In this document: positions 31,446 through 53,718 of the stretch, piece after piece
Layout: every line of letters begins with the position of its first letter
Numbering within the stretch: position 1 is the stretch's first letter
Assembly (NCBI GenBank): GCA_002428725.1
Contig: DIXQ01000021.1
Coordinates: forward strand, 27,097 to 91,096
From: Spirochaetaceae bacterium UBA6076
GTDB lineage: Bacteria; Spirochaetota; Spirochaetia; Treponematales; Rectinemataceae
DNA: 64,000 nt
Direction: 5' to 3'
Position numbers and translations under genes: made by a program
The notes under the pieces: model-generated
The model's database searches: none
What the model saw: the letters and a program-made list of their open reading frames with translations, nothing else
Told to the model about the DNA's origin: nothing

Positions 31446-31457
31446 TATAAGCCTCCT

Positions 31458-33747: not shown

Positions 33748-33749
33748 TA

Positions 33750-33947: not shown

Positions 33948-34106
33948 CCTTCTTCATGCTCCATAAACAAGTTTATGATACAAACTGATATTTAGTGTTC
34001 TCTATCACGCTTGTCAAGGCTTGAAACCATAAAAGCTAGGCAAAAATCCGAGCCTGTGGTATTATCCTCATGATTATCGCGCTGTGCAGTGCGCCAAGGA
34101 GTAAAT

Positions 34107-34982: not shown

Positions 34983-34996
34983 TTTACTAGCTACTC

Positions 34997-35036
34997 GAGG
35001 CTTTTTCAAAAGTTAACAGACTTTTAAAATTAGCTC
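34997..35036. repeat. Second copy of the palindromic intergenic element seen at 1801-1838
   Basis: 35005-35031 is the exact reverse complement of 1805-1831, checked base by base (27/27). It also lies in a convergent intergenic gap, between the DUF4097 gene and the acyl-CoA ligase gene. Confidence 0.7.
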
Positions 35037-35075
35037 ACTCCAAAAGACCGAAGCCTCTGGAGTGGCTTTACATAC

Positions 35076-36989
35076 CTATTCTTTTGAGAAAAGCGCCCTG
35101 ATTTGCTTCTTATACAATTCGTTAATAGCGTGCCGCTTTATTTCCTGCTTTGCCGACAATTCTCTGTCGGGCTGGAAGGCCCCTGGCAGGATTGCGAAGC
35201 GGAAAATCCTTTCAAAGGGTTTAAAGCCATTCTTGGGACTAACGAGCGTGGATATTTCCGAATCGATAAGTTCCTTCACCACTGGCTGCTGCAGAAGCAT
35301 CTCATAATCGTTATAGGGGATGCTGTTTTCCTGCGCCCAGGCTAAAAGGTTCTCTTGCTTAGGGACGATGAGGGCTGCCAAGAATTTTTCGTCCTGTCCA
35401 AGAACTACAGCCTGCTGAATATAAACACTTTCGCCAAGCCGCTGCTCGATGGGCAAAGGCTCGATGTTCTCACCGCCCCTCAGCACGATAGTGTCCTTGG
35501 CTCGCCCTGTGATTTTTATCTCACCGTTGTAGCTCAGCATTCCTAAGTCGCCCGTATCCAGCCAGCCGTCCTTGTCCAGTATCCGTGCGGTGAGATCTGG
35601 GCGTTTGTAGTATCCCAGCATAACCTGAGGACCTCTGACAAAGATGATACCCTTTTGGCCGGGACCTAGAATTTCGCCCTTTTTGCCCACTATTTTTATT
35701 TCTGTTCCCCTGTGCACCGGTCCAACGGTGCCAATGACGGGATGGGTTTTCAGCCTAATGCCAAGAACTGGAGCCGTTTCAGTGAGTCCGTAACCTTCCA
35801 GAATGAGCACGCCTATGGCGTCAAAAAAGCGGTCCACTGCGGATGGCAAGGCACCTCCGCCGGATACTCCGGCGATAAAGTTTTTGCCCAGCTTGGTTTT
35901 AACTTTTTTATATACCAGGATATTGCCCAGAGCCCAGAGCGGGGCAAAGAGGAGGAACGGCACGATCGCCGCGGCGATTTCGAGAATCCGGCTTCCGGGA
36001 CTAAAGCGGGGGTATCGTCCTAAAAGATGGTTACGGAAATAGGCAAAACTTTCTCCAACGCCGACAAAAAAGCCGAAGAGAACCTGTTTAACCTTGCTCG
36101 ACTGCTTAATGCTCTTATAGATTCCGTCTTTGACAGATTCCCAGATTCTGGGTACAGAAGGGAACCAATGTGGCTGGACCGCTTGCATATCCGCCAGAAG
36201 AATAGAACCAATGGGCTTGGAATAGGCTATCGTCGCCCCGGACGTAAGGATTATGTATTGTAGTATTCGCTCAAAAGAATGCCAAACCGGAAGCACCGAA
36301 AGGAATATCTCGCCGGGGTTAACGCCGATGAGCTCGGGCAGGTAATCTGTTTGATGCAAAAAATTGCCGTGGCTGAGCATGACGCCCCTGGGTTCTCCGG
36401 TTGTGCCTGAGGTGTATATGAGCGTCGCCAGGTCGCTTCTGACTCCCTTGGCAGCCTCCTCCTGGTAAAAGCCAGGATGATCGGTTAGGTAAGCTTTTCC
36501 GCTTTCGAGAATTGCTTGGTAAGCATGGACTGTTATACCCTGAGCCTTGGCCTCTCCCAGCGCCGATTCCTCGGCAGGGTCGAAAAGAATGAGGGTGTCA
36601 AGCTTGGGTATAGAGGATCGGGTTTCCAGGATTTTTTTAAGTTGTTTTTCGTTTTCTAGAATCGCGAACTTGCACTCGCTCCAGGAAAGGATATAGGTGA
36701 TTTCTTGAACCGTGGCGTCGCAGCCCCGGGGTACGTCGGCTGCTCCCAGACCGAGGATGGCCAGATCTGCGATCAGCCATTCCCTGCGGTTATCCGCGAT
36801 CAGCCCCACCTTGTCACCCCTTGAAACACCCAGGAGCTTCAAGCCCGCGGAGAATGAAGCGGTCGTATCCTTCAATTCTTTATAACTAGTCGGCCTGAAG
36901 ACTCCTCCCCCATTCTTGGAGAGCTGGGCAACCGTATCGGGTTGTCTGGCCGCTACTTCTAAAAACATCTGAGCAAGGGTCTGTGCCAT
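35076..36989 (-). CDS. Long-chain fatty acid--CoA ligase (AMP-forming)
   Basis: AMP-binding motifs are LIYTSGTTGEPRGVMLSHGN, GYGLTE and DGWLDTGDLG. Confidence 0.85.
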   Translation of the reverse strand: MAQTLAQMFLEVAARQPDTVAQLSKNGGGVFRPTSYKELKDTTASFSAGLKLLGVSRGDKVGLIADNRREWLIADLAILGLGAADVPRGCDATVQEITYILSWSECKFAILENEKQLKKILETRSSIPKLDTLILFDPAEESALGEAKAQGITVHAYQAILESGKAYLTDHPGFYQEEAAKGVRSDLATLIYTSGTTGEPRGVMLSHGNFLHQTDYLPELIGVNPGEIFLSVLPVWHSFERILQYIILTSGATIAYSKPIGSILLADMQAVQPHWFPSVPRIWESVKDGIYKSIKQSSKVKQVLFGFFVGVGESFAYFRNHLLGRYPRFSPGSRILEIAAAIVPFLLFAPLWALGNILVYKKVKTKLGKNFIAGVSGGGALPSAVDRFFDAIGVLILEGYGLTETAPVLGIRLKTHPVIGTVGPVHRGTEIKIVGKKGEILGPGQKGIIFVRGPQVMLGYYKRPDLTARILDKDGWLDTGDLGMLSYNGEIKITGRAKDTIVLRGGENIEPLPIEQRLGESVYIQQAVVLGQDEKFLAALIVPKQENLLAWAQENSIPYNDYEMLLQQPVVKELIDSEISTLVSPKNGFKPFERIFRFAILPGAFQPDRELSAKQEIKRHAINELYKKQIRALFSKE

Positions 36990-37047
36990 GGTCGCTCCTC
37001 GAGATCAAAGTTTACAATAAAACTATAATTGTAAAACTGTTAATACG

Positions 37048-38133
37048 TCAATGATCGAGCGAACAATAGCGATCTTCCGGTACATTGCCGAAGTAGGCGG
37101 TAAAGGTCTCGGCCATGGCGCTGAGACTAGGACTGTTCATCGTTTTGAATTTTATATGATGGGCGAAGGAAAACTGCTCGCAGTAGTAAGAAAAAAAACG
37201 TCTTGCGCTCTCAAGCTGCCAGGCTTCGGGCAAATAGAGTTCGGCCAGGGCAAGAAAGCGTAGCCCGACTGTCAGCCTGTCGATAGACTGGGCCGGCGTA
37301 GGAATAGCTGACTTCGCTGATCCCAAGGCGTGGAGCTGAGAAAATATCCAGGGCTTTCGCACGGCTTCCCGACCAATCATAACAGCATAGGCGCCCGGCG
37401 CGTCGGCGCCGGCTGTGTGCGTGCTGGCTCCGGCTTCCCCTTTGGCTGCCCCAGCCCTCTGTCTGCCGGTCAGCATCGAAATCTGGGCAGCCTCGGTGAT
37501 GTCGCCATTGGCCACCAGGGGGCAGGAAAGGTCTCGGGCTAACCTGAGGCTGTATTCGTGCCTAGCCTTGCCCTTGAATTTCTGATCGTCCCTCCGGGGA
37601 TGAAGACAGAGAAAATCCAGGCCTTCTGCCGCAATGCGCCGACAAAAGCCCAACAGTCTGTCATAGTCTTCATCGGGTCCCATCCGAATCTTGGCCGATA
37701 GGATCCCTGGCCAGGCTGCCCTGGCCGCCGATACTAGCTCAGCGGCCAAATCTGGATCCGAACTCCACGCCGAACCCCCTCCCTTGCTCCTGATGTGTGG
37801 AGCCGAGCAACCGAAATTGATATCCACGCCGGCGGGAAGCTCCTGGAATGGATTATTCCTTAGCTTGGAGCAGGCAGCCGCGAGGCTCGCTGCGCTCCGG
37901 GAGTAAAACTGGACAGATGTCCGATCAGGTTTAGGATTAGAATCGGTGTAGTCCGACTCGTACGGAGCGTTGGCGATATAGGCTTCGGCGCTGGCCATTT
38001 CGGTGAAAGCATAATCCGGGCTGCCAAGTTCTTCTAAAAGTGTTCTGAATGCGCGGTTGGTTATTCCCACCATGGGAGCCAAAAGTATTGAGCCGCTGGA
38101 AAAGGGAAGCATTGGGCCGATAGTATACGCCAA
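37048..38133 (-). CDS. tRNA-dihydrouridine synthase family protein
   Basis: The N-terminal sequence ILLAPMVGITNRAFR and an overall TIM-barrel Dus pattern support the call. An Ala/Gly-rich insertion sits near residue 230. Confidence 0.75.
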   Translation of the reverse strand: MAYTIGPMLPFSSGSILLAPMVGITNRAFRTLLEELGSPDYAFTEMASAEAYIANAPYESDYTDSNPKPDRTSVQFYSRSAASLAAACSKLRNNPFQELPAGVDINFGCSAPHIRSKGGGSAWSSDPDLAAELVSAARAAWPGILSAKIRMGPDEDYDRLLGFCRRIAAEGLDFLCLHPRRDDQKFKGKARHEYSLRLARDLSCPLVANGDITEAAQISMLTGRQRAGAAKGEAGASTHTAGADAPGAYAVMIGREAVRKPWIFSQLHALGSAKSAIPTPAQSIDRLTVGLRFLALAELYLPEAWQLESARRFFSYYCEQFSFAHHIKFKTMNSPSLSAMAETFTAYFGNVPEDRYCSLDH

Positions 38134-38176
38134 ATGCTATCGCTGCAAGAAGCCAAGCCCTTTCCCTGAGCATGAG

Positions 38177-38206
38177 TTGACTTAATGGGGGTTCTTCGGG
38201 TATAAA
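38177..38206 (+). promoter_or_regulatory. Candidate sigma70-type promoter of the rpsP operon
   Basis: TTGACT (38177-38182), an 18-nt spacer, then TATAAA (38201-38206). It lies about 95 nt upstream of rpsP. Confidence 0.5.
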
Positions 38207-38300
38207 ACTCAGGCGCTATTCCCCGATTCGGATCCTAAATCCGGGGGTATGTGAATCTATAAATAGGATCCAAGTTCCCTTTACCGTTCAGGAGGAATCT

Positions 38301-38552
38301 GTGAGCGTCAAGATTAGGCTCAAGAAATTCGGTGCCAAAGCCCGTCCCTACTACCGCATCGTTGTTATGGACAGCCGCTCGCCCCGCGACAGCAGGACTA
38401 TCGATGAGATCGGCCTGTATCACCCCATCGAAACTGAGGATAAACAGCTCAGAATCGACGAGGCGAAGGCAAAGCTCTGGCTTTCCAAGGGCGCCCTGCC
38501 CAGCGACACCGTCCGTTCGCTTCTCAACAAGAAGAATATCCAGGTCAAGTAA
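38301..38552 (+). CDS. rpsP: 30S ribosomal protein S16
   Basis: The sequence (M)SVKIRLKKFGAKARPYYRIVVMDSRSPRDSRTIDEIGLYHP supports the call. The start is GTG, preceded by AGGAGG. Confidence 0.9.
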   Translation: MSVKIRLKKFGAKARPYYRIVVMDSRSPRDSRTIDEIGLYHPIETEDKQLRIDEAKAKLWLSKGALPSDTVRSLLNKKNIQVK

Positions 38553-38630
38553 ACCACGGCTCTGCCGTTGTCCATCCGCCGGATAGCGTTTGCTTCGGCG
38601 GCCTGTTCGTTTCTTTTTAAGGAGAATCAT

Positions 38631-38864
38631 GTGGAACGCGACTTAGTCGAGTATATTGTCAAATCACTGGTCGACGAGCCCGAGGCTGTCGATATCAAGG
38701 TTATTGAAGGCGAAAAGTCCACCATCCTCGAACTCAAGGTAGCCGAGGCTGATATCGGCAAGGTGATCGGCAAAAACGGCCGTATCGCCAAAGCGATCAG
38801 GACTATTCTTTCCGCCAGCGCCAACGCACAGTCCAAACGGGTAATCCTGGAGATTTTGGACTGA
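38631..38864 (+). CDS. KH-domain RNA-binding protein (YlqC/UPF0109 family)
   Basis: The sequence GKVIGKNGRIAKAIRTIL is a KH GxxG motif. I moved the start to GTG 38631, with AAGGAG 6 nt upstream. Confidence 0.8.
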   Translation: MERDLVEYIVKSLVDEPEAVDIKVIEGEKSTILELKVAEADIGKVIGKNGRIAKAIRTILSASANAQSKRVILEILD

Positions 38865-38871
38865 GCTTTTT

Positions 38872-39405
38872 TTGATGAACGACAGACCTGAAAATGAATT
38901 ACTGGCGGTCGCCAAGCTCGGCGCCCCCCGGGGACTAAAGGGGCTTGTCAAGGTTCATAGTTATTCCGGAGACTTTTCCCACATCGAATCATTAAAGCAG
39001 GTTCTCGTGGCTCCCGAAGGGGAGCCAGGGAAAGGTAAAACTCTACAGGTAAGCTTTGTTGAGAGGGGTGGGCATGGTCTCGACATGGCATTTTCCGGCT
39101 ACGAGTCGCCGGAGAAAGCCCGAGGACTCACCGGGTTGCTGCTCTACCTTCCCAGGGAACTGGCGAGTCCCTTGAGGGAGAACGAATACTACATCCACGA
39201 CCTCGTGGGCATGCGGGTTTTAAGCCAGGGCTTGGAGGCAGGCATTGTCGAAGCCGTGTTGGAGGGGGGAGCCGATCCTCTTCTGGAACTGCGCAGGACT
39301 GGCACGGGAGCGATGTCGCTTGTTCCCTTCCGCAAAGAATTCGTCGGGGAAGTGGATTTGAAGGCAAAAAGCCTGGAACTTTTGGCGGGATGGCTTTTAG
39401 AATGA
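38872..39405 (+). CDS. rimM: 16S rRNA processing protein RimM
   Basis: The sequence LAVAKLGAPRGLKGLVKV and the conserved operon position support the call. Confidence 0.85.
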   Translation: MMNDRPENELLAVAKLGAPRGLKGLVKVHSYSGDFSHIESLKQVLVAPEGEPGKGKTLQVSFVERGGHGLDMAFSGYESPEKARGLTGLLLYLPRELASPLRENEYYIHDLVGMRVLSQGLEAGIVEAVLEGGADPLLELRRTGTGAMSLVPFRKEFVGEVDLKAKSLELLAGWLLE

Positions 39406-40172
39406 AACTGACCATACTCAGCCTGTTTCCGGAGATCCTCAGGGCTTATTTTGAAGCTTCTATAATGAAGCGCGCCGTGGCTGCAGGCCTTGTGGAGTAC
39501 TCCCTTGTCAACATTCGGGATTACGCCACCGACAAGCACCACAAGTGCGATGATGAAGTTTTCGGCGGCGGAGCCGGTATGCTCATGAAGCCAGAGCCCT
39601 TGGACAAGGCATTAGAAGCCGCTGGCTCGCCGGGGGTTAGAACTGTCTTCGTAAGCCCTTCGGGGAGGCTTTTCAGCCAATCATACGCCCAAGAACTGGC
39701 TTTGGAGAAGGAACTCGTTATTCTCTGCGGCCGTTACGAGGGTGTGGATCAGCGGATAATAAACAGCAGGGTTACCGACGAGATTTCGATTGGTGATTAT
39801 GTGCTGTCCAGCGGCGAAGTGGCGGCCATGGTACTGGTGGACGCGATTTACCGGCTTAAGCCCGGGGTTATATCGGGAGAATCCTTGGAGGAGGAGAGTT
39901 TCTCCAAGGGACTCCTCGAGTATCCCCAGTATACACGACCGGCAATTTATGATAACATACGGGCTCCCGATGTTGTTCTGTCGGGCAACCATGCACAAAT
40001 CGCACGGTGGAGGCTCAAGGCAAGCATCCTCAAGACGCTAGCCTACCGCCCCGAGCTTCTTACGAGAGACAATCTGGCGGAAGATGTCGCCCGGTTGTTG
40101 CGCGAGGCAATCGATGAAGGGGGATGGCATGAACCTGGTACAGTCCATTCAAGCCGAACAGATGAAGAGTGA
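39402..40172 (+). CDS. trmD: tRNA (guanine37-N1)-methyltransferase
   Basis: The sequences MKLTILSLFPEI, GGGAGMLMKPEP, ILCGRYEGVDQR and LSGNHAQIARWR support the call. There is an ATGA overlap with rimM. Confidence 0.9.
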   Translation: MKLTILSLFPEILRAYFEASIMKRAVAAGLVEYSLVNIRDYATDKHHKCDDEVFGGGAGMLMKPEPLDKALEAAGSPGVRTVFVSPSGRLFSQSYAQELALEKELVILCGRYEGVDQRIINSRVTDEISIGDYVLSSGEVAAMVLVDAIYRLKPGVISGESLEEESFSKGLLEYPQYTRPAIYDNIRAPDVVLSGNHAQIARWRLKASILKTLAYRPELLTRDNLAEDVARLLREAIDEGGWHEPGTVHSSRTDEE

Positions 40173-40527
40173 GCTCCCGGCGTTTCAGGTGGGCGACACC
40201 GTACGCGTGAGTTTCAAGATCGTTGAGGGAAAAACCGAACGCGTCCAGGCCTATGAAGGATTAGTCATAGCGGTCAAGAACGCGGGCATTGGGAAAACCT
40301 TTACTGTACGAAAGAATTCCTATGGAGTTGGGGTCGAACGCGTATTCCCCCTCAACTCGCCCAGGGTCGAGAAAGTAGAAGTGCTGCGCAGAGGCAAGGT
40401 GCGCAGATCCAAGCTCTACTACATCCGGATCAAGGTGGGCAAGAAGTCCAAGGTTAAGGAGCTGATAGTCTCTGGCAAAAAGGACGAGTCTGTTACCGAA
40501 ACCGCTGCTCCCGCCGACAAAGCATAG
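40129..40527 (+). CDS. rplS: 50S ribosomal protein L19
   Basis: MNLVQSIQAEQMKSELPAFQVGDTVRV aligns with the E. coli L19 N-terminus. The start overlaps the trmD 3' end by 44 nt. Confidence 0.9.
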   Translation: MNLVQSIQAEQMKSELPAFQVGDTVRVSFKIVEGKTERVQAYEGLVIAVKNAGIGKTFTVRKNSYGVGVERVFPLNSPRVEKVEVLRRGKVRRSKLYYIRIKVGKKSKVKELIVSGKKDESVTETAAPADKA

Positions 40528-40548
40528 ACGAATTTCTTCGATTTCAAT

Positions 40549-40576
40549 GGGCTGCCTTTTGGAGGCAGCCTTTTTT
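40549..40576 (+). terminator. Rho-independent terminator of the rpsP-rplS operon
   Basis: The sequence reads GGGCTGCC ttttgga GGCAGCC TTTTTT. Confidence 0.7.
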
Positions 40577-40625
40577 ATGTGCGGTATTTTGAAGCGGCGA
40601 AGGAAACCTGCCACGTTATCGTGGT

Positions 40626-40994
40626 ATGGAAGAGATGTTTTCCTCAACTAGTTTTGGACGGGCGGGGGAAGAGCGAATCGCCTCGCTGCTGGTAACAGAA
40701 GGCTGGAGTATTCTGGAGCGTAATTATCGAGCCGGCAGGGGCGAGATAGACATTATCGCGGAGCGGGACGGACTAATTGCCTTTATTGAGGTTAAACATT
40801 GGAGAGCCTTGGACTGTTCGGCGCTTGAAAAAGCCTTAAACGCCGATAAAACTCGCCGGATCATCGAAACTTCTAAGATTTATCTGTCGATGTATCGAAA
40901 ATATAAGAACCGTAGAATTCGATACGATGTCATTTTCCTTTTCCGCGACGGAATTCCGATGCGATTCGAAGGAGCGTTTGACGAGACAGTATGA
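40626..40994 (+). CDS. yraN: YraN-family endonuclease-like protein (UPF0102)
   Basis: The sequence GRAGEERIASLLVTEGWSILERNYRAGRGEIDIIAERDGLIAFIEVKHW supports the call. Confidence 0.8.
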   Translation: MEEMFSSTSFGRAGEERIASLLVTEGWSILERNYRAGRGEIDIIAERDGLIAFIEVKHWRALDCSALEKALNADKTRRIIETSKIYLSMYRKYKNRRIRYDVIFLFRDGIPMRFEGAFDETV

Positions 40995-41718: not shown

Positions 41719-42255
41719 ATGAGCAGGGCCTTTGTCGACGAGGACTCTGGCTCGGATGAAACCGATGACATGCACGAGATTCCCCTTCCGCTTGCCCCGG
41801 GGGTGAAAAATTACATGACCCCCGGAGGTGCGCTTCGAATGATGGAAGAGTTGCGTACCTTGATCGATGTCGAACGGCCCAGGGCGGCCGCGGCGCTGGC
41901 CGCTGCAGATGCCCAAGCCAAAGCAAGCCCGCTTAGAGAAATTTCCCGCATCGATAGACGAATATCTTACCTTAGCCGCATGAAGGCTTTTATGGAGGTA
42001 GTCCAGCCGCCTTCGAGCCTAGAGCGCATGGTCTTTGGCCTTGTTGCCCGGGTCGATGAAGGAAGCGATCAGGAAGTTTACTACCGCATCGTCGGTGTGG
42101 ACGAAAGCGATCCCGAGCGGGGCTGGGTAAGCTGGGCGAGCCCGGTGGCCAAGGCTTTGATCGGCAAATCGGTGGGCGATCTGGCGGTGGTTAAGCTTCC
42201 TCTTGGCGAGAGAAGAATGAAAATTATCGGTATCGAATACGCGAAGGAAGAATGA
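41719..42255 (+). CDS. GreA/GreB-family transcription elongation factor homologue
   Basis: The C-terminal sequence YYRIVGVDESDPERGWVSWASPVAKALIGKSVGDLAVVKLPLGERRMKIIGIEY matches the GreA/B C-terminal domain pattern. Confidence 0.7.
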   Translation: MSRAFVDEDSGSDETDDMHEIPLPLAPGVKNYMTPGGALRMMEELRTLIDVERPRAAAALAAADAQAKASPLREISRIDRRISYLSRMKAFMEVVQPPSSLERMVFGLVARVDEGSDQEVYYRIVGVDESDPERGWVSWASPVAKALIGKSVGDLAVVKLPLGERRMKIIGIEYAKEE

Positions 42256-43090
42256 AAGGAGCTCCAATTTCGACTGGGCCTCGAGGTATTCAAAGCGGTG
42301 GTAGTCCTTATGACGAACACCCAGATCCTTCCTGGGCTAGGCGGTCCTGGATTTCTCTGGATGGGGCTTGGACTTTTTCAAAATTAGGCGGGGCGAATAA
42401 GAACCGTGGGCTTACACAGCAAATACAAGTTCCTTTTCCGATTGGGAGCGAGCTGTCGGGAGTACGATCGAAGGATAAAGGATGCTGGACGTATTGCAGA
42501 AGATTCACTCTCCCCGATAAACCGAAAAGCCGCTGGATCCTCCACGTTGGAGCCTGCGATTACGATTTACCTGCCTTCGCGCAAAGCCTTTGAAGACTAT
42601 GAAGCCGAATTGCGTTCCCTCATCGCTAGGGACATGGCTCATCCCTCCTGCGTGATGAGGATTTTATTCAACGAAACCTGGGGTATCTGGGGCTTGTATG
42701 GCCAGGGCTTTCTATGAGGCTGTTAAGCGTAAGGATCCTGACGTCCTTCATAATTTTTCCGTTCTTAAGGTTCTGGCCTTCAACCTTTTTTATCAGGTGG
42801 CGACTAAAACCCGCAGTCTCTTCGTGAATCGCGATGCCAAGATCGATGGTACGCCACTCTTTTTAAGCGAATACGGGGGCTTTGGCTGGTACAAGGCTGA
42901 AGGGAATGCCGAAACCACCGAGCTTATCAAAGAATATACGAAGGATATTCTGGATTCAGGTCTTTTTTGCGGCTACTGCTACACCCAGCTCTACGACGTG
43001 GGTTCCGAGACCAACGGACTCTTGACCGCGGACCGCAGACCTAAGGTGGATACGGACGCGATGAGGAAAATCAACGATTATCGAGCATGA
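42252..43090 (+). pseudogene. Decayed family-2 glycoside hydrolase (beta-galactosidase/glucuronidase-like) gene
   Basis: GH2-like pieces sit in three different frames. Frame 0 carries ISLDGAWTF...QIQVPFP...ILHVGACDY (N-terminal sugar-binding domain). Frame 1 carries RDMAHPSCVMRILFNETWG (acid/base region). Frame 2 carries PLFLSEYGGFGW...NGLLTADRRPK (nucleophile region and C-terminus). Together they total about 280 codons, whereas GH2 enzymes are normally 600 aa or more. Confidence 0.6.
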
Positions 43091-43143
43091 CTTAATTACT
43101 GAGTTTAGACATTCTTTTCAGCGACATAGGACTAAAGAATTAT

Positions 43144-43476
43144 CTATGCTGTAGGTTCTGATAATCCCTTAGTTCCAATAAGACGCAAATTAATATTTCT
43201 CCATCCCGGCACGTGCATGCTCATGAGTGCTTTGAAGAGCCGGCCATGAGCCGGAATGCGCAAATGAAGAAGCTCATGAACAATGACGTAGTTCTGGAAG
43301 GATTCATCTTGATCAATGAGATCTTCCGCTAGTGTAATTGTGCCACCGGTGGAGCAAGAGCCCCACTTATTTTTCATTTTCTGAATTCGGATGGCGTGCG
43401 GATTTACATGAAGCGTGACCGACCACTGCAGCACTCGGCGCTTAAGCTCTTGGGTGGGGTAGGATGCTCTGCTCAT
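43144..43476 (-). CDS. Short DUF45/YgjP-like (M48-type) zinc metallopeptidase
   Basis: The sequences [18 protein letters not shown] and [19 protein letters not shown] (HExxH) support the call. The start ATG 43476 forms an ATGA overlap with the hsdR stop. The longer listed ORF start lies inside hsdR. Confidence 0.7.
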
Positions 43477-46412
43477 TCCTGAATGTTCCCGAAAAGCGAC
43501 TCTATAGTCTTTTCCACGATGCGGGTGCGATCCTCGAGCCCAAGGTTGAGCAGGGGTCGGTATAAAGCCGATCGAAGGCGGCGGCCTTCCTCCTGGTTTT
43601 TCGCGGCGTTCGGATAGCGCGCTAAAAGATGTTCGGCGTCCCGCGCGAATTCCATGGGGGAGATGCCAGCTGAATACAGGACTGGATCCTCGTGTAGCGT
43701 CCAATACGCTGAAAAAGCACGTTCGCACAACCCGCTTTCGGATGCCGATTTGAGCGCGGCTTCCCGTTCATTCGAGAGTCCGACCAAGCCGTCGAGAGCC
43801 TGGAGGGCGTCGATCTGCTTGTCGGAGAGATCTTTAACGATACGTTCGGCCCTCTCCTTGAGAGGAAGGAGGACGCTCGCCATGCCTGGATTATCTTCGA
43901 GTTCCTTTTGAAGTCCCCTTACAAGATTGAACACCTTGCTCTCGTCGGATCCTTTTTCTTTTCTGAGCGCTTCGATGGTTTTCGCATCAAAGGTGACAGC
44001 CCGCGTCAGGCGCGAAAGACCCGATTGCAGCGCACTCGATTCGATGAGTCGCTGTGTTTTATGGGCCAGGTCGGCGATGTAGCCTGTTTTATCGGAATAC
44101 GCGTTGCGCGTTACGCTATAGAGAGCGGTCAGGATTTTATAGTCCTCGACGTAGTCCCGAAGCTGGGGATCGGGGGAGAGAATTTCCCAGAGATTTTCGA
44201 TCTCCTTGTATGCTTCGTAGAAAGCTTTTCGCGTTTCGCTCTCAAGAAACCTGCCAAAGACGATACGCTCCAATGACTCATCGGGATTGTCTTTATCTAT
44301 CTCGGCATGATCCAGCCAGGAATCCCTCGCCATGGCCATTTTCTTGCCAAAATCCTCCCTGAGCAGATCGATGTCTTCGATGGCTCCTCCGACATCTTCG
44401 GAGTCAAAGCTGAGGGCTTTCTTGAGTTCGCGCAGGACGCCGACGAAATCCACGATGAGGCCGACCTTCTTCTCGACATCGTCGGCGTCGACATAGGGGC
44501 GATTTGCGCGGGCGAGGGCCTGAAGCAGGACATGATCGCGCATCGGCTTATCCAGATAGAGACAGTAGAGGAGGGGAGCGTCAAAACCTGTGAGGAGCTT
44601 GTCGGTGACGATGAGTATTTTCGGATCTTCCTTCGGCTTCTTGAAGAGAGCCTTCACGGTCGCCTCGCGTTCGCTATCCAGTTGGAGGCTTGCCACGAGA
44701 GGCCTGTCGATCGCGTCGCTCGCGTTTTCAGAATAGACTGCCTCAGACCAGGCCGGCGGCAAGTACCTATCCAAAGCAATTTTGTATTTGGCGCATGCCT
44801 CGCGGTTTACCGCGATGAGAAAAGCCTTGTATCCCAGAGGGAGTACGTTTTCCCTGAAGTGATTCGAGACGAAGGCGGCCACTTTCTCGATCCGATCATC
44901 CGCCGACAGGAAGGTACGCAAACCGACAGCCCGGTCGAGGACTCGGTTGAGTTCGTCGATATCCGTGATGCCTTCTGATCCCGCGAGTTCGAAAAATTCC
45001 TTGTCTAGTCGATCGGAGGGGACCGTCATGTCGCTAGGCGCGAGAACGTGCTTAATGGGAAGGGTCGTGCCGTCGGCGATCGATTCGACGATCGGGTACT
45101 TGTCGAGGTAGCCGTGCTCGTCCTGGGTGCCGAAAATCTTGAACGTGCCTTCTCCCTGGCTGTTGTTGGCGATAGGCGTTCCCGTAAAACCAATGATCGT
45201 GGAATGAGGCAAAGCCGCCATCAGGTATGTTCCAAGGTCCTTCGCGACCGATCGGTGGGCTTCATCGATGAAGACGAACACGTTATCGCGCCCGCAAGCC
45301 GCCCCAGGTATGCCGTCGAATTTCTGGATCGTCGAGATGACAAGCCCGCGGAAATCAGCGTCGATCAATGCTTGAAGGTCAGCCTTGCTGCTCGCTCGCC
45401 TCGTCGCAATATCCTGATTTTGTAGCTCTCCAAGAAGGCGCTCCACCCAGCGCGACAACTGCCCTTCCAAATCGATTCGATCGACAATCGTGATGACGGT
45501 GGCGCTCGAGAATCGTTGTTTGTCCTCGAGGATGATCCTAGCGGCGGTCAGGAGTGTAAAGGTCTTACCTGAACCCTGGGTATGCCAAATCAGTCCTCTT
45601 GTCCGCCCTGGATCGGCGCAGCGTTCGACGATAGCGTCTATTGCGCGTCGCTGGTGCTGGCGAAGAATGGACTTTTTCGTTTCCCCATCCTGGACGTAGA
45701 AGAGAATCCAACGTTCGAGGCTGCGGAGAAAATCGGTAGGCTCAAAGAAAGATTGGACCGCGAAGCGATAGCTCTCGTCGGGCGCTTGCTTCCATCTCGC
45801 CATGTCCCGCCGCGTGACGTTCCAGGTGACGCCATACCAGTAGTCGAGCATGTGGGTCACGTTAAAGAGCTGGGTTGTGCCGAGAAGCTCTGGCGTCTCG
45901 ATTTCGTAACGGCGAAGCTGTTTGACGCCCCTCTCGAGCGCATCCCCGGTTTTTGGGTTCTTGTGCTCGACGATGCAGACCGGAATGCCGTTCACGATAA
46001 AGATGAGGTCCGCGCGATTGGCCTTCCGCGCGGGCGGCTTTATCTGCCACTCCCAGCTGCACTGGAGAATGTTATTGGCCGCCGTGCCGAAGTCGATGAG
46101 TCTGACAGTCCGCTTGCAGTTCTCGGTTTCATCGTACCACTGCCGCTCGCCACGAAGCCATGCCAAGGCCTCGCGGTTGCCCTCGATGCTCGCGGGCAGG
46201 GCTTCCAGCGTCTCGACGATGGATCGGATGGAATCTTCGGAAAGCCAGGGATTGAACTCCGCCAGCTTGGACGCCAATTCGCCCCTGAAGAGCATTCCCG
46301 TCGTACCGCCGCGTTTGGCCTTCGCCGATTCAGGATCAATCGGTGCCCATCCCACTTCGGCGGCGTGGCGGATCATGGGAAATTGGGCGATTGCCTTTTC
46401 GTCTATTTTCAT
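43473..46412 (-). CDS. hsdR: Type I restriction enzyme R subunit
   Basis: The N-terminal nuclease motif is [18 protein letters not shown]. The helicase motif I is [10 protein letters not shown] and the DEAH box is FIDEAHRS. Length is 979 aa. Confidence 0.9.
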
Positions 46413-46963
46413 TTTTTACCGGCTTCAAAATCTTTGCCATATGGTGGGATCGATTCGCAGACTTCCAGAGTCGCCCTGTTCTGAATCGCGAGGCGGGCGA
46501 GGGCTCGATCGATTTTCGCCTTCTGTCTTTCGCTCAGCTTACTCTTGTTTGAGCTATAGAGGCGAAGAAAGTTTTCGGGAATTGAGACAAGTTTCAGAAG
46601 ACTATTGTGCGCGCCCGAAGGGATGACGCCTTGCTCATAGGAGTTGATGGTGAGGTCGCCGATGTCTAGGAGCTTCGCGAAGCTCTTCTGGCTAACGTCA
46701 TAGCGGGCGCGCATGGCTACGAGTTCCGCCGGGCCGATGATCCCATGGCGGGCGCGGTATACGGCTCGTGCCGATTCTATCTCGGCATCCATCTGCTCGC
46801 CGGACGCGAAGTCTTTCCCACAGGTTTCGCAGACCGAGAACACCGAGTCGAACTCCACGTCCTCGCCCCGGATCTTCATGGTCTCCCGCTCGCAGACGAT
46901 CCTGATATTCCGCATGGCCTCGCAGTGGGGACATGCGTCGCGAATCACTTCAAGCACACTCAT
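46409..46963 (-). CDS. MqsA-family antitoxin-like protein (YgiT-type zinc ribbon plus XRE HTH) with a ~50-aa C-terminal extension
   Basis: The pairs CPHC...CETC form a zinc ribbon. They are followed by [56 protein letters not shown]. This parallels E. coli MqsA (CPVC..CVHC; LSLTQKEAAEIFGGGVNAFSRYEKGNAQPHPSTIKLLRVLDKHPELL). Confidence 0.7.
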
Positions 46964-46972
46964 GTATCCACC

Positions 46973-47299
46973 TCAATCATGATAGGAGAGCACTTTAAGC
47001 CAGTCGGAGCCGCCCATCTGGAAAAGCTTGAGCTTGATGTAGAAGCGCGTTCCGAACTCGTCGTAGAAGAAAAACCACAGGCTCCCTTCAGACCCATCGT
47101 CATCACGTTCTGGTCCTTTCCAATAATGCTCGGAGCCAAGTTTAGCCAGCCGTTTGCAGATACCTTCGAATGAAAGACCATAGTGTTCCATCGCGTCCCG
47201 GTTCTTATCTCGATCGACGAGGAGGACCAGCCGATGATTCTTGAGCACCTCCCGCTTCCGCATCAGGAATACCTGGAGTCCCAAACCGGCGTCTGGCAC
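46973..47299 (-). CDS. MqsR-like mRNA interferase toxin candidate
   Basis: About 109 aa. DAMEHYGLSFEGICKRLAKLGSEHYWKG and YIKLKLF...LKVLSYH parallel E. coli MqsR ADELGLDFDGMCNVIIGLSESDFYKSM and YLKITVI..LIVSFKEK. The gene lies 9 nt upstream of the MqsA-like gene. I chose the start at the GTG 7 nt after AGGAGG (47307-47312); 47302 and 47335 are alternatives. Confidence 0.55.
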   Translation of the reverse strand: MPDAGLGLQVFLMRKREVLKNHRLVLLVDRDKNRDAMEHYGLSFEGICKRLAKLGSEHYWKGPERDDDGSEGSLWFFFYDEFGTRFYIKLKLFQMGGSDWLKVLSYHD

Positions 47300-47363
47300 C
47301 ACTATACCTCCTATTTTGGTATCAATCAATACCAAAACACAGTCACTTTTTAGGACTGCCCAC

Positions 47364-48545
47364 CTAATCCGCGGCTTTCCCGATAGCCGGTAAATCCAAG
47401 TCCGCGATCCGGATCTCCCCTGTCATCAGTTTATGAAGGAGGCTCTTGAAGAGTTCCTCGAGGAGGGTCTTCTTTTTCTTGTGCAGCTCGATCTTGCGGT
47501 CTATGGTGTCGAGGATCTCGACGGTTTCAAGCTGTTCGGGGAGGGAAGGTATAGCGACTAACCAAGGCGTTAAAAACTGAATATTTATATTTTTCTGTGT
47601 TCCCTTAGGAGCACGTCTATCCATTTCTGATTGCTGTGTTTGTAGGAAGTATTCAAGATATCTCGCATCTATCTCGGTTTGTGGGGTAATTGCAATTATA
47701 CTATCAGGGCAAGCACTATCGAATCCCAGAATTCCTGTGTAGCCGATATTGGCTGCAATGGTTATCAAGATGGTTCCTTTGGGGAATACGCGACTGATAG
47801 CCACACCTTCTTCGTTAAGGCTTTGAGTATAAGTATTTATCTTGCCCCCGGATTTAACAACATCACCGGTCTGGACAAATGGGATCTTTCCACCATAGAA
47901 GCGAGGTTCATTTCGCGGTCTATGAAGAAAACGACCTCGTTCAAGCAATGCTATACTTCCAAGAGGTAACACCTTCCAATTCTCCGGCACTAGCCCAATT
48001 TCTGTCTCCTTCTGAGCCTTGTTGTGGAGGCCTCGCGTGAAGAGTTCGCGCATCGCGGCGCGCTTGAGGGCAGTCGTGAGATCACAAGTCCGTTGTTCAC
48101 CATCTATATGCGACTCAATTATTGCTAGGATTTTTCCAATCAATTCCTGTTCCTCTTTCGGGGGGATTGGAATTTCTCGTTCCTTAAGAATGGATAAGTG
48201 GCGGTTGTAGCCTCGGCTTTCAATATCAAGGGCTTTACAGGCGAAGTAGAAGAAATGTGGATCAAAACGATCATCAGGGTAGAGTATTTGGGTACCATCT
48301 GCGCCGCGCACAAATGGGAAATCGATGTATTTTAAAATCCGAGTGTGGTCACCAAAGATAATTAACGGTAAAGGTGAATCAATAAGGCCGTTACGATTAT
48401 CTGTCCATCCTGCTATGAGATCTCGACCTTGGTCAATAATCGGAAAAGCACCACTAATTTTATAGTCTTTTGTCTGTAATTTGTTTGTCGGTAGTTGTAG
48501 AGGTTTAAGGCAAGAAGCGACTGAGACGGTCTCCCATTTGATCAT
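47364..48545 (-). CDS. hsdS: Type I restriction enzyme S (specificity) subunit
   Basis: Two target-recognition halves are separated by the conserved helix ALKRAAMRELFTRGL. The protein ends with LLEELFKSLLHKLMTGEIRI. The start lies 2 nt after the hsdM stop. Confidence 0.85.
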   Translation of the reverse strand: MIKWETVSVASCLKPLQLPTNKLQTKDYKISGAFPIIDQGRDLIAGWTDNRNGLIDSPLPLIIFGDHTRILKYIDFPFVRGADGTQILYPDDRFDPHFFYFACKALDIESRGYNRHLSILKEREIPIPPKEEQELIGKILAIIESHIDGEQRTCDLTTALKRAAMRELFTRGLHNKAQKETEIGLVPENWKVLPLGSIALLERGRFLHRPRNEPRFYGGKIPFVQTGDVVKSGGKINTYTQSLNEEGVAISRVFPKGTILITIAANIGYTGILGFDSACPDSIIAITPQTEIDARYLEYFLQTQQSEMDRRAPKGTQKNINIQFLTPWLVAIPSLPEQLETVEILDTIDRKIELHKKKKTLLEELFKSLLHKLMTGEIRIADLDLPAIGKAAD

Positions 48546-48547
48546 TT

Positions 48548-50392
<1,845 letters not shown>

Positions 50393-50398
50393 ATTTGC

Positions 50399-50427
50399 AA
50401 TATATGTTATAATAATATCTATGTCAA
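50399..50427 (-). promoter_or_regulatory. Near-consensus sigma70-type promoter abutting the hsdM start codon (leaderless configuration)
   Basis: Minus strand reads TTGACA (50427-50422), a 17-nt spacer, TATATT (50404-50399), GCAAAT, then ATG (50392). There is no Shine-Dalgarno sequence. Confidence 0.5.
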
Positions 50428-50442
50428 TCGTATTTTAAGCTA

Positions 50443-51018
50443 TCAGTTTTGGTTTTCGAAGTAGAGATTGTATTTTTTCCAGAAATACTTGGGATTAGGA
50501 ACATCGTCTCGGCCTTCGATGACAGCGACGGCGTCGCGGATCTCCTGTAGGTTTGCCCGACCCTCGTCGTACATGAGCTTGAGAAGATCGATGGTGCTTG
50601 TGACGGGAATGTCGAATTCAGCCGCCAACGATGTCATCGGTCCATCGTCTGTGACCACCACCGCCCCAAAGGCGAGGGCATAAACTAGACAGAAATTATC
50701 CACGGGCGAGGTGCTGAGCAGGAAATCTTGAGCCGTTTCTCTAATATATTCGAGGTTTGTCTCTATTTCCCTGCGCTTTTCCTGGCAAACGCGGAGATAG
50801 TGGCTGCGATCTTGCGAATAGGTTTCTGAACTCGCCCAATGGAATTTGCTCGATAGTCGGGAATTGCGCCTGAGTTCATGATCAAGATCAGGAACGACAC
50901 GGAGCCTGCAAGGTGGAGATCCGAAAACAGTCGCGATTATCGGGTGAAAGGAGTCCGCCACCCTGAGATAGGTGTTGGTATCGAGCAGAAACAGGCGCTC
51001 ATCGCCGGACGAGGGCAT
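50443..51018 (-). CDS. PIN-domain nuclease candidate
   Basis: Four spaced acidic positions fit the PIN pattern: LFLLDTNTY, DLDHELRR, SPVDNFCL and VVVTDDGPM. I took the start as Met12; it overlaps the upstream gene by about 20 nt. Confidence 0.6.
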   Translation of the reverse strand: MPSSGDERLFLLDTNTYLRVADSFHPIIATVFGSPPCRLRVVPDLDHELRRNSRLSSKFHWASSETYSQDRSHYLRVCQEKRREIETNLEYIRETAQDFLLSTSPVDNFCLVYALAFGAVVVTDDGPMTSLAAEFDIPVTSTIDLLKLMYDEGRANLQEIRDAVAVIEGRDDVPNPKYFWKKYNLYFENQN

Positions 51019-52129
51019 CGAGGATCGCCTTCGCGTCGGCGGGGCCGACACCGAGACTGGCCGCGACTATACCTTCCGATTCCCCATGCTCCGCTACGTA
51101 GGAGCGAAGGGCTGAATAGAATGGGCTCTTGAAGATTTCTTCCGATATGCGGATCAGATCGATTGCGTTCGGAGTATCCGAAAAAAAGATGCCTGAACTT
51201 ACTAGGCCATATTCTTTATTAAAATTAGTGTTGGCACCAAAAATCGCCTTGCCTAAGAGTTCTTCGCCTCCTCGCGAATGAGCGATATAATCTATTCGCT
51301 TCGCAATAGTAACGGGCGATACGATAAGTTCCCGCGCGACAGCGAGGACACGAAGTATTCGCGCGCCCATATCGGGGATCTCTGAAAGTCTATCAAATTC
51401 CTCGATAGCAATATTCTCGGGAACGAGTATAGCGGAGGCAAACGCGTCAGAGAACTTTTCCGCGTCTGTGCTATTGAGTAGCCCAGATGTCTTCGAATGA
51501 CCGAGCTCGTGGAGCATCCAGAACTTGAAATCGAACAGCTTGGTGTCCAGATTTAGATAGACGAGCGTAGTCTGAGAGTCCGGCAGATAGACGTGGAGAG
51601 CGTTGTCGAGGCTGTCTTTTTCGCCCCAGAGTACGGGGACCAGAACCGTCTTGAGCTCGCCGAAAAGACCAATGATGTCCTCGAAATGTACCTGTTTTCC
51701 GACGCAGCCCATGGCAGCCCGGGTTTCCAGGGCGGCTTCTTCTACGTAGGCCGCTTCGACGCGCGGCGATATAAGGCGAGCTGGCGCGCTAAGACGACCG
51801 AAGGGGAGGTATGGAACTAGAAGGTTAGCGGCCTTTCCCATACCCTTGGCACGTTTCTCGTCCTCAGCCTTCACCTTCGCGTTTCCGTGTTTTCTGTAAG
51901 CTACGATAGGCTCCGCGATTCCACTACTTGAAACGAGCTCCGAATAGCTAAGGGTGAGGAGCTTGCCAAGGCGTAGCAACAGAGCAGGGCGGGGGAATTT
52001 CTTACCCTTGAGCCATTCTGAAACAATGGTTTTCGATACGCCTAGCGAAGCGGCAATAGCGGCTGCATTCAGCCCCAATTCCTGCATAGCCTGCTCTATT
52101 CGATCAAGGGAAAGTCGTTTGTCTGCCAC
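50999..52129 (-). CDS. XRE-family HTH fused to an ImmA/IrrE (COG2856-type) zinc metallopeptidase domain
   Basis: The N-terminal HTH is LGLNAAAIAASLGVSKTIVSEWLKGKKFP. The HExxH motif is in FWMLHELGHS, near residue 215. The start is GTG at 52129. Confidence 0.7.
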   Translation of the reverse strand: MADKRLSLDRIEQAMQELGLNAAAIAASLGVSKTIVSEWLKGKKFPRPALLLRLGKLLTLSYSELVSSSGIAEPIVAYRKHGNAKVKAEDEKRAKGMGKAANLLVPYLPFGRLSAPARLISPRVEAAYVEEAALETRAAMGCVGKQVHFEDIIGLFGELKTVLVPVLWGEKDSLDNALHVYLPDSQTTLVYLNLDTKLFDFKFWMLHELGHSKTSGLLNSTDAEKFSDAFASAILVPENIAIEEFDRLSEIPDMGARILRVLAVARELIVSPVTIAKRIDYIAHSRGGEELLGKAIFGANTNFNKEYGLVSSGIFFSDTPNAIDLIRISEEIFKSPFYSALRSYVAEHGESEGIVAASLGVGPADAKAILDALVRR

Positions 52130-52135
52130 GCATAA

Positions 52136-52164
52136 AATGTATCAGGGGAGTAAACTTTCGTCAA
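52136..52164 (-). promoter_or_regulatory. Candidate sigma70-type promoter abutting the start of the HTH-ImmA/IrrE gene
   Basis: Minus strand reads TTGACG (52164-52159), a 17-nt spacer, TACATT (52141-52136), TTATGC, then GTG (52129). This is the same geometry as the hsdM promoter. Confidence 0.4.
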
Positions 52165-52230
52165 CTTTAAAATTATTCTTGTCCTGTTTGCTTAATAACT
52201 TGCAGAATTGCTCAGGTTAAAATGGTAGAC

Positions 52231-52436
52231 GCCCAGTGGGGGTAGCGGAGAAGACCGGAGGGCGGGCCGCTGGGCAAACAGCAGCGCTACAAGGCTATCT
52301 GCAGTATGCTAAAAGTGGGTGCCCGGCGGCCCGCCCGAGGACTTTGGAGCGAGGGGGAGCAGCGTAGGTACCAGCGGGCGTTTGTCAGTTACCGCGGCTG
52401 GTAGGCCGGCTTGATACAAAGCCTCGCTCCCCCTCT
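52231..52436. other. Unassigned GC-rich, highly structured intergenic element (candidate small RNA or structured 3'UTR of serS)
   Basis: Stems verified by hand. A 17-bp stem pairs 52260-52276 with 52320-52336 (16 Watson-Crick pairs plus one G.U on the plus strand). A 10-bp perfect stem pairs 52351-52360 with 52426-52435. That stem encloses 52369-52375/52397-52403 and 52408-52412/52419-52423. No coding potential is apparent. Confidence 0.3.
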
Positions 52437-52446
52437 TGATGAGGCT

Positions 52447-53718
52447 CTATCGCCGTATTTCCGAAAATCCGCAGTAGGGCACCAGGGCGGGGGGCATGGC
52501 CACCGAGCCGTCGGCTCGCTGAAAGTTCTCCAGGACGGCGATGATAGCCCGCGAACAGGCCACCGCCGTGCCATTGAGCATGTGGACGTGTTTGTTCTTG
52601 CCATCATCGTCCTTGTACTTGATATTGAGTCGCCTGGCCTGATAGTCGGTGCAGTTGGAGGTGGAGGTCACTTCGCCCCATTCTCCTCCGTTGCGGCCGG
52701 GCATCCAGGCTTCCAGGTCCCATTTGCGGTAGGCCGGGGCGCCCAGGTCGCCGGTGCAGGTGTCCACTACCCTGAAGGGTATGCCCAGGCCGGAGAATAT
52801 TTCCTCTTCCACGCTCCGCAGGTACTCGTGCATGGCTCCCGATTCATCCGGCGTGGTGTAGGCGAACATCTCCACCTTGGTGAACTGATGCACCCGGTAG
52901 AGGCCCTTGGAGAACTGGCCCGCGGCTCCCGCTTCGCGCCTGAAGCAGTGGGAAACCCCGGCGAGCTTCAGGGGGAGGCTGGCCTTGTCGAGGATGGAGC
53001 CTGAATAGTAGCCGCCCAGGGTGATTTCGGCGGTGCCGATAAGGCAGGTGCCTTCGCCCTCAACGGTGTAGATGTTGGACTCAGGCCCCCGGGGGTTGAA
53101 GCCGATGCCCTCCAGGATCTCTGTCTTGGCGATGTCGGGGGTTTGGAAAAGGGTGAAGCCCTTTTTCATGAGGATGTCTAGGGTGTAGCGCACTAAGGCC
53201 ATCTCCAGGATAACGGCCTGGTTTTTCAGGTAATAGAATTTAGTGCCCGACACCCTGGTGGCGGTATCGAAGTCGATGAGGTCGAGGTCGGCACCCAGCT
53301 GCACGTGGTCCTTAGGCTCGAAGTCGAATTTTGTGGGTTCGCCCACGCGTTTTACTTCGAGGTTGTCCTTGTCTTCCTTGCCCCTGGGCGCCTCAGGGTG
53401 GGCCATATTGGGAATCTTGGCTCCCTCAACGGCCAGGCGCTGCTCTAGATCGGCCAGGCGGACTTCTGCCTCTGCTATTTTATCCTTAAGAAGTTTGCCT
53501 TCCTCTATCCTGATCGCTCGGATTCCGGGATCGAGCTTTCCTTTCATGGCCAGGGCATTGTCGTTCCGCTTTTTTCGCAGCTCCTCCACATCTCGCTGAA
53601 GGCTGACTTTCTCGTCATAAAGGGAAACCACAAGATCCGCGTTAGCATCCATGTATCGCTCGACGATATTCTTTTTTACTTCGTCGAGATTGTCTTTAAT
53701 AAACCTATAATCCAACAT
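52447..53718 (-). CDS. serS: Serine--tRNA ligase
   Basis: There is an N-terminal coiled-coil arm. Class II motifs include CFRREAGAAG and GTAVACSRAIIAVLEN. Length is 423 aa. Confidence 0.95.
   Translation of the reverse strand: MLDYRFIKDNLDEVKKNIVERYMDANADLVVSLYDEKVSLQRDVEELRKKRNDNALAMKGKLDPGIRAIRIEEGKLLKDKIAEAEVRLADLEQRLAVEGAKIPNMAHPEAPRGKEDKDNLEVKRVGEPTKFDFEPKDHVQLGADLDLIDFDTATRVSGTKFYYLKNQAVILEMALVRYTLDILMKKGFTLFQTPDIAKTEILEGIGFNPRGPESNIYTVEGEGTCLIGTAEITLGGYYSGSILDKASLPLKLAGVSHCFRREAGAAGQFSKGLYRVHQFTKVEMFAYTTPDESGAMHEYLRSVEEEIFSGLGIPFRVVDTCTGDLGAPAYRKWDLEAWMPGRNGGEWGEVTSTSNCTDYQARRLNIKYKDDDGKNKHVHMLNGTAVACSRAIIAVLENFQRADGSVAMPPALVPYCGFSEIRR

Follow-up and report, generated by a model that had tools for sequence, protein, structure and literature searches.

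The window analysed here is a stretch of 64,000 nucleotides (nt) from Spirochaetaceae bacterium UBA6076 (contig DIXQ01000021.1, positions 27,097 to 91,096), and our subject is two neighbouring genes on its minus strand: one encodes a 376-amino-acid (aa) protein with an XRE helix-turn-helix (HTH) domain and an IrrE-type (M78) zinc peptidase domain, the other a 191-aa PIN-like protein. Judged by analogy with characterised systems, the locus is likely to be a two-gene toxin–antitoxin (TA) or abortive-infection module of the VapBC52 type, similar to RosmerTA. Based on its sequence and modelled structure, the 191-aa protein is a predicted PIN-like nuclease and the predicted toxin; the 376-aa protein is a predicted self-cleaving antitoxin and repressor. 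The locus is an unannotated further instance of a known HTH-peptidase/PIN kind. The source lineage is a spirochaete of the Rectinemataceae/Treponemataceae group, in which the PIN proteins of the related loci L007 to L009 are 81-82% identical to that of the window.

The association of the two genes was followed in a sample of 86 loci from metagenomes and named genomes, 85 of which have upstream DNA. In all 85 an HTH-M78 homologue lies directly 5' of the PIN-like gene on the same strand, and across related loci the two frames overlap or abut as a rule. The PIN gene is also the sole constant neighbour of the HTH-peptidase gene across these loci; the peptidase and PIN genes form a strict two-gene module. 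Paired loci are found in Spirochaetota (Rectinemataceae and Treponemataceae), Gamma- and Betaproteobacteria, Desulfobacterota, Ignavibacteriales and other groups, and on an Escherichia coli plasmid, and the distant paired PIN genes are true homologues of the window gene (hhalign E 1e-35 and 7e-40). The initial annotation had taken the pair to be TA-like, which is a reasonable view.

Concerning the small protein, the motifs LLDTN, HELRR, VDNF and VTDD, which the initial annotation had named as the source of four acidic residues of a PIN fold, are all present. In an alignment with 33 homologues reaching down to 26% identity, D13, N15, E48, D107, T123, D124 and D125 are invariant, the four acidic motif residues among them; the steps between D13, E48, D107 and D125 are 35, 59 and 18 residues. 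The catalytic residues of FitB are D5, E42, D104 and D122, a similar spacing. Whether the product is PIN-like at all had been singled out beforehand as decisive, and on this point the proposal stands: the AlphaFold model (mean predicted local distance difference test score, pLDDT, 93.4; predicted template modelling score, pTM, 0.89) has a PIN fold, and its best Foldseek matches in the PDB are all PIN proteins (VapC, FitB, HARP, Nmd4 and SMG6; probability ~1.0). The TM-scores of these matches over the query are moderate (0.43-0.50) because three C-terminal helices beyond the PIN core (residues ~142-188 of the model) go unmatched. In sequence-profile comparison, the HARP protein-only RNase P enzymes come closest among solved proteins (E 0.004); they are still the best match of a subgroup PIN profile (E 0.004), with which 9vzy (VapC52) stays non-significant.

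For the PIN family, a word-indexed search returned 39 relatives, and an exhaustive profile search 570 clusters (50% identity) at E <= 1e-3, with 368 at E <= 1e-10. Among 33 relatives, Pfam DUF4411 is matched by 4 (best E 4.8e-5) and PIN by 3; one relative is named DUF4411 by NCBI and another has a DUF3368 match. The window protein itself is sub-threshold for every Pfam PIN-clan model tried (DUF4411 PF14367, PIN PF01850 and DUF3368 PF11848), and PHROGs gave no match for it. A PADLOC scan of 33 relatives yielded two stray weak matches and nothing else, and none of 32 relatives matched an RmrT model at E <= 0.01.

In the large protein, Pfam finds HTH_3 at residues 11-65 (E 4e-6) and Peptidase_M78 at E 3e-4, where the 21.0 bits are just below the gathering cut-off of 22 bits. 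The zinc-binding sequence FWMLHELGHS occupies residues 203-212, and H207, E208, H211 and E224 are kept in 83 of 83 aligned family members. The AlphaFold model (pLDDT 89.1) ends in four helices (322-331, 337-348, 352-359 and 363-375); Foldseek places IrrE (3dti/3dte, probability 1.0) at the top of its PDB matches, with XRE repressors matching the N-terminus. The profile also matches the HTH domains of the P22 C2 and 434 repressors (2e-6), and among phage families the strongest match is to transcriptional regulators (phrog_2439, 2e-15). The domain calls of the initial annotation (XRE HTH, ImmA/IrrE-type HExxH peptidase and, for the partner, PIN fold) are thus borne out by Pfam, AlphaFold and Foldseek. 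The RosmerTA resemblance that it named is likewise real: 11 RmrA models of PADLOC match the 376-aa protein at E <= 0.005 (best PDLC03949, 5e-12), the matches being limited to residues 9 to about 250. There are more than 885 homologues, many of them 375-377 aa long with ~40% full-length identity.

A second conserved element lies at the junction of the HTH and peptidase domains. Looking at the 83 members, position 78 is F or Y in 82, and R79 and P74 are each present in 81. Modelled on F75-R76 of VapB52, [F/Y]78-R79 is the predicted self-cleavage site.

Both open reading frames (ORFs) lie where the initial annotation had put them, on the minus strand and overlapping. The PIN ATG, at 51018, precedes the final base of the peptidase stop codon (50999-51001) by 20 nt and has a GAAGG Shine-Dalgarno-like stretch upstream of it; the ORF listing also gives the gene as a longer GTG form (50443-51051, 202 aa). 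The 20-nt overlap suggests translational coupling. For the peptidase gene, a start at ATG 52087 (a 362-aa form annotated in some relatives) was rejected on two grounds: helix 1 of the HTH is formed by residues 1-14, which can be aligned even in distant homologues, and most differences in the aligned DNA over that stretch are synonymous.

The pair has a sigma-70-like promoter independent of the neighbouring genes. Over the region around it (~52100-52180) four Rectinemataceae/Treponemataceae relatives are nearly identical throughout, but further upstream their DNA diverges. The end of the -10 element is 7 nt from the GTG start, and the mRNA of the pair would therefore have little or no leader. 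A 9-nt direct repeat, GTAAACTTT and GTCAACTTT at a 10-nt spacing, falls between the two promoter hexamers and on the -35 element; it is a candidate operator, a function that we infer. The spacer between serS and the pair (52130-52446, minus strand) holds G/C-rich blocks, GGGGGAGCGAGG ... CCCCCTCGCTCC, common to L007 and in part to L009; the blocks do not form a hairpin and match no Rfam family. No Rfam family reached its gathering score anywhere in the window and no tRNA was found there, thus giving no candidate for an RNA antitoxin and no tRNA-linked island border. The coordinates of all features are listed in Table 1.

Table 1. Features of the HTH-peptidase/PIN locus and its neighbourhood (positions in the window unless residues are given)
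Feature	Position	Strand	Basis or remark
XRE-HTH/IrrE-type (M78) zinc peptidase gene, 376 aa, GTG start	50999-52129	minus	
PIN-like (predicted nuclease) gene, 191 aa, ATG start	50443-51018	minus	
Gene overlap, 20 nt	50999-51018	minus	read off the sequence
N-terminal XRE HTH, predicted	residues ~1-66 of the 376-aa protein		
Linker with P-[VI]-[VI]-A-[FY]-R-[KR] motif, predicted	residues 74-80 of the 376-aa protein		
Peptidase core, predicted	residues ~120-235 of the 376-aa protein		
Helical (HTH-like) subdomain, predicted	residues ~254-305 of the 376-aa protein		
C-terminal helical bundle, predicted	residues ~320-376 of the 376-aa protein		
Codons 74-82 (PIVAYRKHG), [F/Y]-R motif at HTH-peptidase junction	51884-51910	minus	conservation
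Zinc site, H207-E208-x-x-H211 with E224 as third ligand	51458-51511	minus	conservation
Catalytic acidic residue D13 of the PIN-like protein	50980-50982	minus	
Catalytic acidic residue E48 of the PIN-like protein	50875-50877	minus	
Catalytic acidic residue D107 of the PIN-like protein	50698-50700	minus	
Catalytic acidic residue D125 of the PIN-like protein	50644-50646	minus	
Sigma-70-like promoter of the pair: TTGACG, 17-nt spacer, TACATT, upstream TG	52136-52164	minus	promoter scan
serS	52447-53718	minus	317-nt spacer separates it from the peptidase gene
Type I restriction-modification operon	43473-50392	minus	Pfam and NCBIfam; neighbour outside the module
hsdM with fused N-terminal HTH	48548-50392	minus	~50 nt downstream of the PIN gene
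hsdS	47364-48545	minus	
hsdR	43473-46412	minus	
Promoter of the restriction-modification operon: TTGACA, 17-nt spacer, TATATT	50399-50427	minus	promoter scan

Pairs of this architecture have been described before. In Makarova et al. (2009), 60 COG2856-PIN gene pairs were listed and proposed to form a three-component TA system, in which the COG2856-Xre fusion would be a protease controlling a PIN or RelE toxin (PMC2701414). Matelska et al. (2017) reported DUF4411.1, COG2405/DUF3368, PIN_14, PIN_20 and PIN_26 genes co-transcribed downstream of HTH-DUF955 fusions, put forward degradation of the fused HTH by the protease itself, and pointed out links between PIN toxins and restriction-modification (R-M) systems (PMC5499597); that the window PIN belongs to their cluster PIN_14 is a guess. 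RosmerTA was presented by Millman et al. (2022), citing Matelska 2017, as an anti-phage system of a Zn-peptidase antitoxin with a toxin whose function was not known, and PIN-like partners of the ImmA/Rosmer node were reported by Ernits et al. (2023; PMC10440598). The Mycobacterium tuberculosis pair Rv2515c/Rv2514c was then characterised as VapBC52 (Singh et al., NAR 2026; PDB 9vzy and 9vzz; PMC13273310). The initial annotation had suggested that a PIN partner is undescribed, which these papers (PMC2701414, PMC5499597, PMC10440598 and PMC13273310) contradict; the part that stands is that no RmrT model of PADLOC matches the PIN family. Its proposal of a new peptidase-gated toxin module is not supported, and the locus adds no new principle, because the HTH-peptidase-PIN architecture was predicted in 2009 and again in 2017 and its prototype, VapBC52, was solved and functionally tested in 2026.

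VapBC52 is the closest model. VapB52 combines an XRE-like N-terminal domain, an IrrE-type peptidase that contains an HTH motif, and a four-helix C-terminal domain, which blocks the toxin's active site in a 1:2 complex; single-stranded DNA (ssDNA) brings about its self-cleavage, mapped to the linker between the N-terminal and middle domains and most likely at F75-R76, which removes the toxin-binding N-terminal domain and frees the toxin (PMC13273310). VapC52, a DUF4411-like PIN protein, cleaves tRNAs and protects against a mycobacteriophage; the system also acts in virulence and growth (PMC13273310). The window pair has the same gene order, a large antitoxin gene followed by a PIN toxin gene, and its predicted antitoxin likewise combines an XRE-like N-terminus, an IrrE-type HExxH with a Glu ligand, a helical HTH-like subdomain and a C-terminal bundle. 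Its [F/Y]-R motif, at 78-79, is at a near-equal distance from the N-terminus to F75-R76, and its four predicted C-terminal helices parallel the toxin-occluding domain of VapB52, on the window side in the model only. VapC52 and the predicted window toxin share a DUF4411-like PIN character with four conserved acidic residues, and phage defence is plausible for both systems. The window antitoxin is shorter than VapB52 (376 aa against 415 aa, the VapB52 C-terminal domain ending at V415), while the window toxin, with its three extra C-terminal helices, appears longer than VapC52 (191 aa against the 162-residue chain of 9vzy). The host also differs, being a spirochaete (Rectinemataceae), and the window system is known here from sequence and models.

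With RosmerTA the locus shares a two-gene organisation, an HTH and Zn-peptidase antitoxin matching RmrA models and a variable toxin partner; it differs in that no catalogued PADLOC RmrT model fits its PIN-like partner, whereas the RmrT of Gordonia phage Kita, the one RmrT found with a described mode of action, is a membrane-depolarising protein and not a nuclease (PMC10440598). The architecture and the proposed self-cleavage logic are exactly those of the HTH-DUF955(COG2856)/PIN three-component systems, and some PIN members of the window family weakly match DUF4411, DUF3368 or PIN, although the window PIN itself is under every Pfam PIN-clan threshold. CapH/CapP, DdrO/IrrE of Deinococcus and ImmR/ImmA of ICEBs1 also use an IrrE/M78 peptidase that cleaves an XRE-type HTH protein upon DNA damage or in response to ssDNA; there, however, the repressor substrate is separate and the output transcriptional, whereas in the window the HTH is fused, the output would be a co-encoded nuclease, and the protein lacks both a GAF domain and a cysteine switch. 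HARP (PIN_5) and VapC/FitB proteins, the closest solved PIN structures and sequences, have the same acidic active site and act on tRNA or RNA; the window antitoxin type differs from the RHH, AbrB and Phd types, and no evidence was found of an RNase P-like function such as that of HARP.

Following these precedents, the 376-aa protein would be both repressor and antitoxin, its XRE HTH probably binding the promoter of its own operon while its terminal domains bind the PIN nuclease and keep it inactive. The IrrE-type peptidase would be activated by a signal of stress or infection, most likely a nucleic acid such as ssDNA, as for VapB52 and CapP, and would cut its own chain at [F/Y]78-R79, between the HTH and peptidase domains. 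The complex would then dissociate and release the Mg-dependent PIN nuclease, and the freed enzyme would cleave RNA, probably tRNA, so that growth or phage replication stops. Toxicity, neutralisation, self-cleavage, trigger, RNA substrate and phage protection are all inferred here from VapBC52, CapP and RosmerTA.

Several results weigh against assigning the locus to the VapBC52 type. The best Pfam match of the 191-aa protein, DUF4411, reaches 14.1 bits against a cut-off of 23.5 bits; PADLOC (E <= 0.1) and NCBIfam scans of it gave no match, and its profile meets 9vzy at E = 2, which is not significant. The peptidase region has no detectable sequence similarity to VapB52. When the full peptidase profile was run against PDB sequences, HTH domains alone were matched, and a profile of the linker, peptidase and C-terminal regions found nothing at E <= 10 in the PDB sequence set (9vzy included; presence of 9vzz unconfirmed); neither search thus revealed sequence homology to IrrE, CapP or VapB52. 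As neither VapB52 nor VapC52 is significantly similar in sequence, the analogy with VapBC52 is one of fold, architecture and a single short motif. Both VapB52 and CapP have a cysteine switch (C229 in VapB52) that auto-inhibits the enzyme by occluding the zinc site, and ssDNA triggers both (PMC13273310). This cysteine has no counterpart in 83 of 83 window-family members, none of which has a cysteine between H211 and E224; with the switch missing, regulation and trigger may differ from those of VapB52 and CapP. Finally, searches of viral contigs and phage genomes returned no relatives.

The lack of phage-borne copies in those two collections also speaks for an ordinary chromosomal type II TA system, serving stress response, persistence or locus stabilisation with no anti-phage role, in which the peptidase merely tunes antitoxin turnover. 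In the closest relatives serS and greA, both housekeeping genes, flank the pair and other defence genes are absent, and VapBC52 has roles in virulence and growth besides its protective one (PMC13273310). We nevertheless regard this account as unlikely: R-M genes stand beside the pair in ~30% of well-flanked loci, the E. coli pair is on an integrase-bearing island with PsyrTA-like genes, and RosmerTA and VapBC52 are both phage-protective.

Concerning the genes around the pair, a type I R-M operon follows directly downstream, beginning with hsdM (Table 1), as the initial annotation had pointed out, and the defence context that it drew from this is real. The possibility that the pair is part of the R-M operon was considered and rejected: R-M is a neighbour and not part of the module, because the operon has a strong promoter of its own and the block is missing from the syntenic locus L001, a related Rectinemataceae contig in which the pair lies between serS and greA, abutting greA, with no R-M. 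Relative to L001 the window has ~8.2 kb of extra DNA, with the R-M operon and small ORFs; this block (window ~42250-50430 against L001 8585-8730) marks an insertion/deletion hotspot adjoining the pair. Counted only in loci with at least 8 kb on both sides (n=43), hsd-like (type I R-M-like) genes occur within 10 kb of the pair in 13 (~30%), at least two kinds being present in 9. This enrichment is mostly at less than 800 bp from the pair, with same-direction, convergent and divergent orientations all occurring. Patchy, island-linked distribution and R-M adjacency are usual for defence genes; the recurrent adjacency probably reflects clustering in defence islands and fits a defence role of the pair.

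The adjacency can also be read as functional coupling of the pair to the R-M system, which it would serve either as a second layer, sensing DNA fragments or ssDNA that arise when restriction takes place or fails, or as an addiction module stabilising the R-M genes. R-M-like genes of varied types and orientations recur as immediate neighbours in several phyla and on the plasmid from E. coli, ssDNA is a signal for both VapB52 and CapP, and PIN toxin-R-M links were noted in 2017 (PMC5499597). Yet in ~70% of the well-flanked loci no hsd-like gene was detected within 10 kb, L001, the closest relative, carries the pair without R-M, orientation to the R-M genes varies, the R-M operon of the window has a promoter of its own, and co-location in a defence island is the simpler account of all these observations; we therefore consider coupling improbable. 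Equally doubtful is a more specific version, in which the subfamily without a cysteine switch would sense a signal unlike that of VapB52 and CapP and tied to R-M, with the PIN protein as an abortive-infection back-up to restriction. If so, DNA fragments or ssDNA arising when type I restriction engages phage DNA, or fails, would activate the peptidase, and this would explain the immediate R-M neighbours of roughly a quarter to a third of the loci, in different phyla. Finally, a transcriptional switch of the ImmR/ImmA, DdrO/IrrE or CapH/CapP type, de-repressing other genes, for instance those of a mobile element, of the R-M operon or of a damage regulon, with the PIN protein as an accessory RNase instead of a toxin, is a possibility raised by Makarova et al. 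(PMC2701414) and agrees with IrrE as best structural match and transcriptional regulators as top phage-family match (phrog_2439, 2e-15), but is highly improbable, as no separate small XRE repressor gene accompanies the pair (the HTH being fused to the peptidase), no integrase or phage genes lie nearby in the window, the PIN gene is the only invariant partner across 85 loci, with overlapping frames, and its catalytic residues are invariant.

The R-M block itself contains further genes. Between hsdS and hsdR lie an MqsR-like toxin gene (46973-47335, minus strand; Pfam MqsR_toxin E 1.4e-4) and the gene of an antitoxin of the MqsA family (46409-46963, minus strand; TIGR03830 E 7e-22), a second TA-type module of the same island (46409-47335). 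The N-terminal XRE HTH of HsdM (residues 9-57, HTH_3 E 9e-8) may be a controller (C-protein-like) domain built into the protein; in the island of the E. coli plasmid, the methylase is preceded at the corresponding place (L087 7650-7874) by a separate 74-aa HTH_17/Xis-like gene. The 3' end of hsdR is overlapped by an ORF (43144-43728, minus strand) that encodes a YgjP-like/SprT-like metallopeptidase domain (PF01863 E 2e-25); this ORF is probably one more, downstream gene of the R-M operon, whose true start lies later. Two small ORFs (42252-42593 and 42698-43090) have no Pfam match at E <= 0.01, and the G+C content falls to 0.44 across hsdS.

Looking at single loci of the sample, the E. coli IncF plasmid NZ_OX030731.1 (L087) carries a PIN homologue 36% identical to that of the window, together with its HTH partner; the accessions of the two proteins are WP_001172094.1 and WP_001136617.1. 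In the island concerned (26159-40665), two tyrosine recombinases (integrases) and a methyltransferase/S subunit pair lie beside the HTH-peptidase/PIN pair, as do a RecQ-like helicase-phosphoribosyltransferase fusion and DprA, resembling the PsyrTA/RqlHI defence TA. The E. coli pair (at least 99% identity) is accessory, being present in 54 of 5426 complete genomes, where it is annotated as 'helix-turn-helix domain-containing protein' and 'hypothetical protein' and nothing more. Two other loci have unusual arrangements: a contig labelled Ca. Planktophila lacus (L074 4274-8414) has two pairs in tandem, one of them strongly divergent, and in a Propionivibrio contig (L077 9995-10594) the PIN gene is broken into two ORFs, probably as a pseudogene, the peptidase gene being intact.

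Pfam, NCBIfam and PADLOC all fail to recognise the PIN subfamily to which the window protein belongs (~570 clusters, always paired with an HTH-M78 family of its own), and many uncalled systems would come to light if it were added to catalogues of defence and TA systems. The missing cysteine switch is the mechanistic difference worth following; together with the conserved [F/Y]-R motif it makes the family a useful comparison for the off/on control of self-cleaving antitoxins, and the E. coli copy would be a convenient system in which to study how such antitoxins are controlled.

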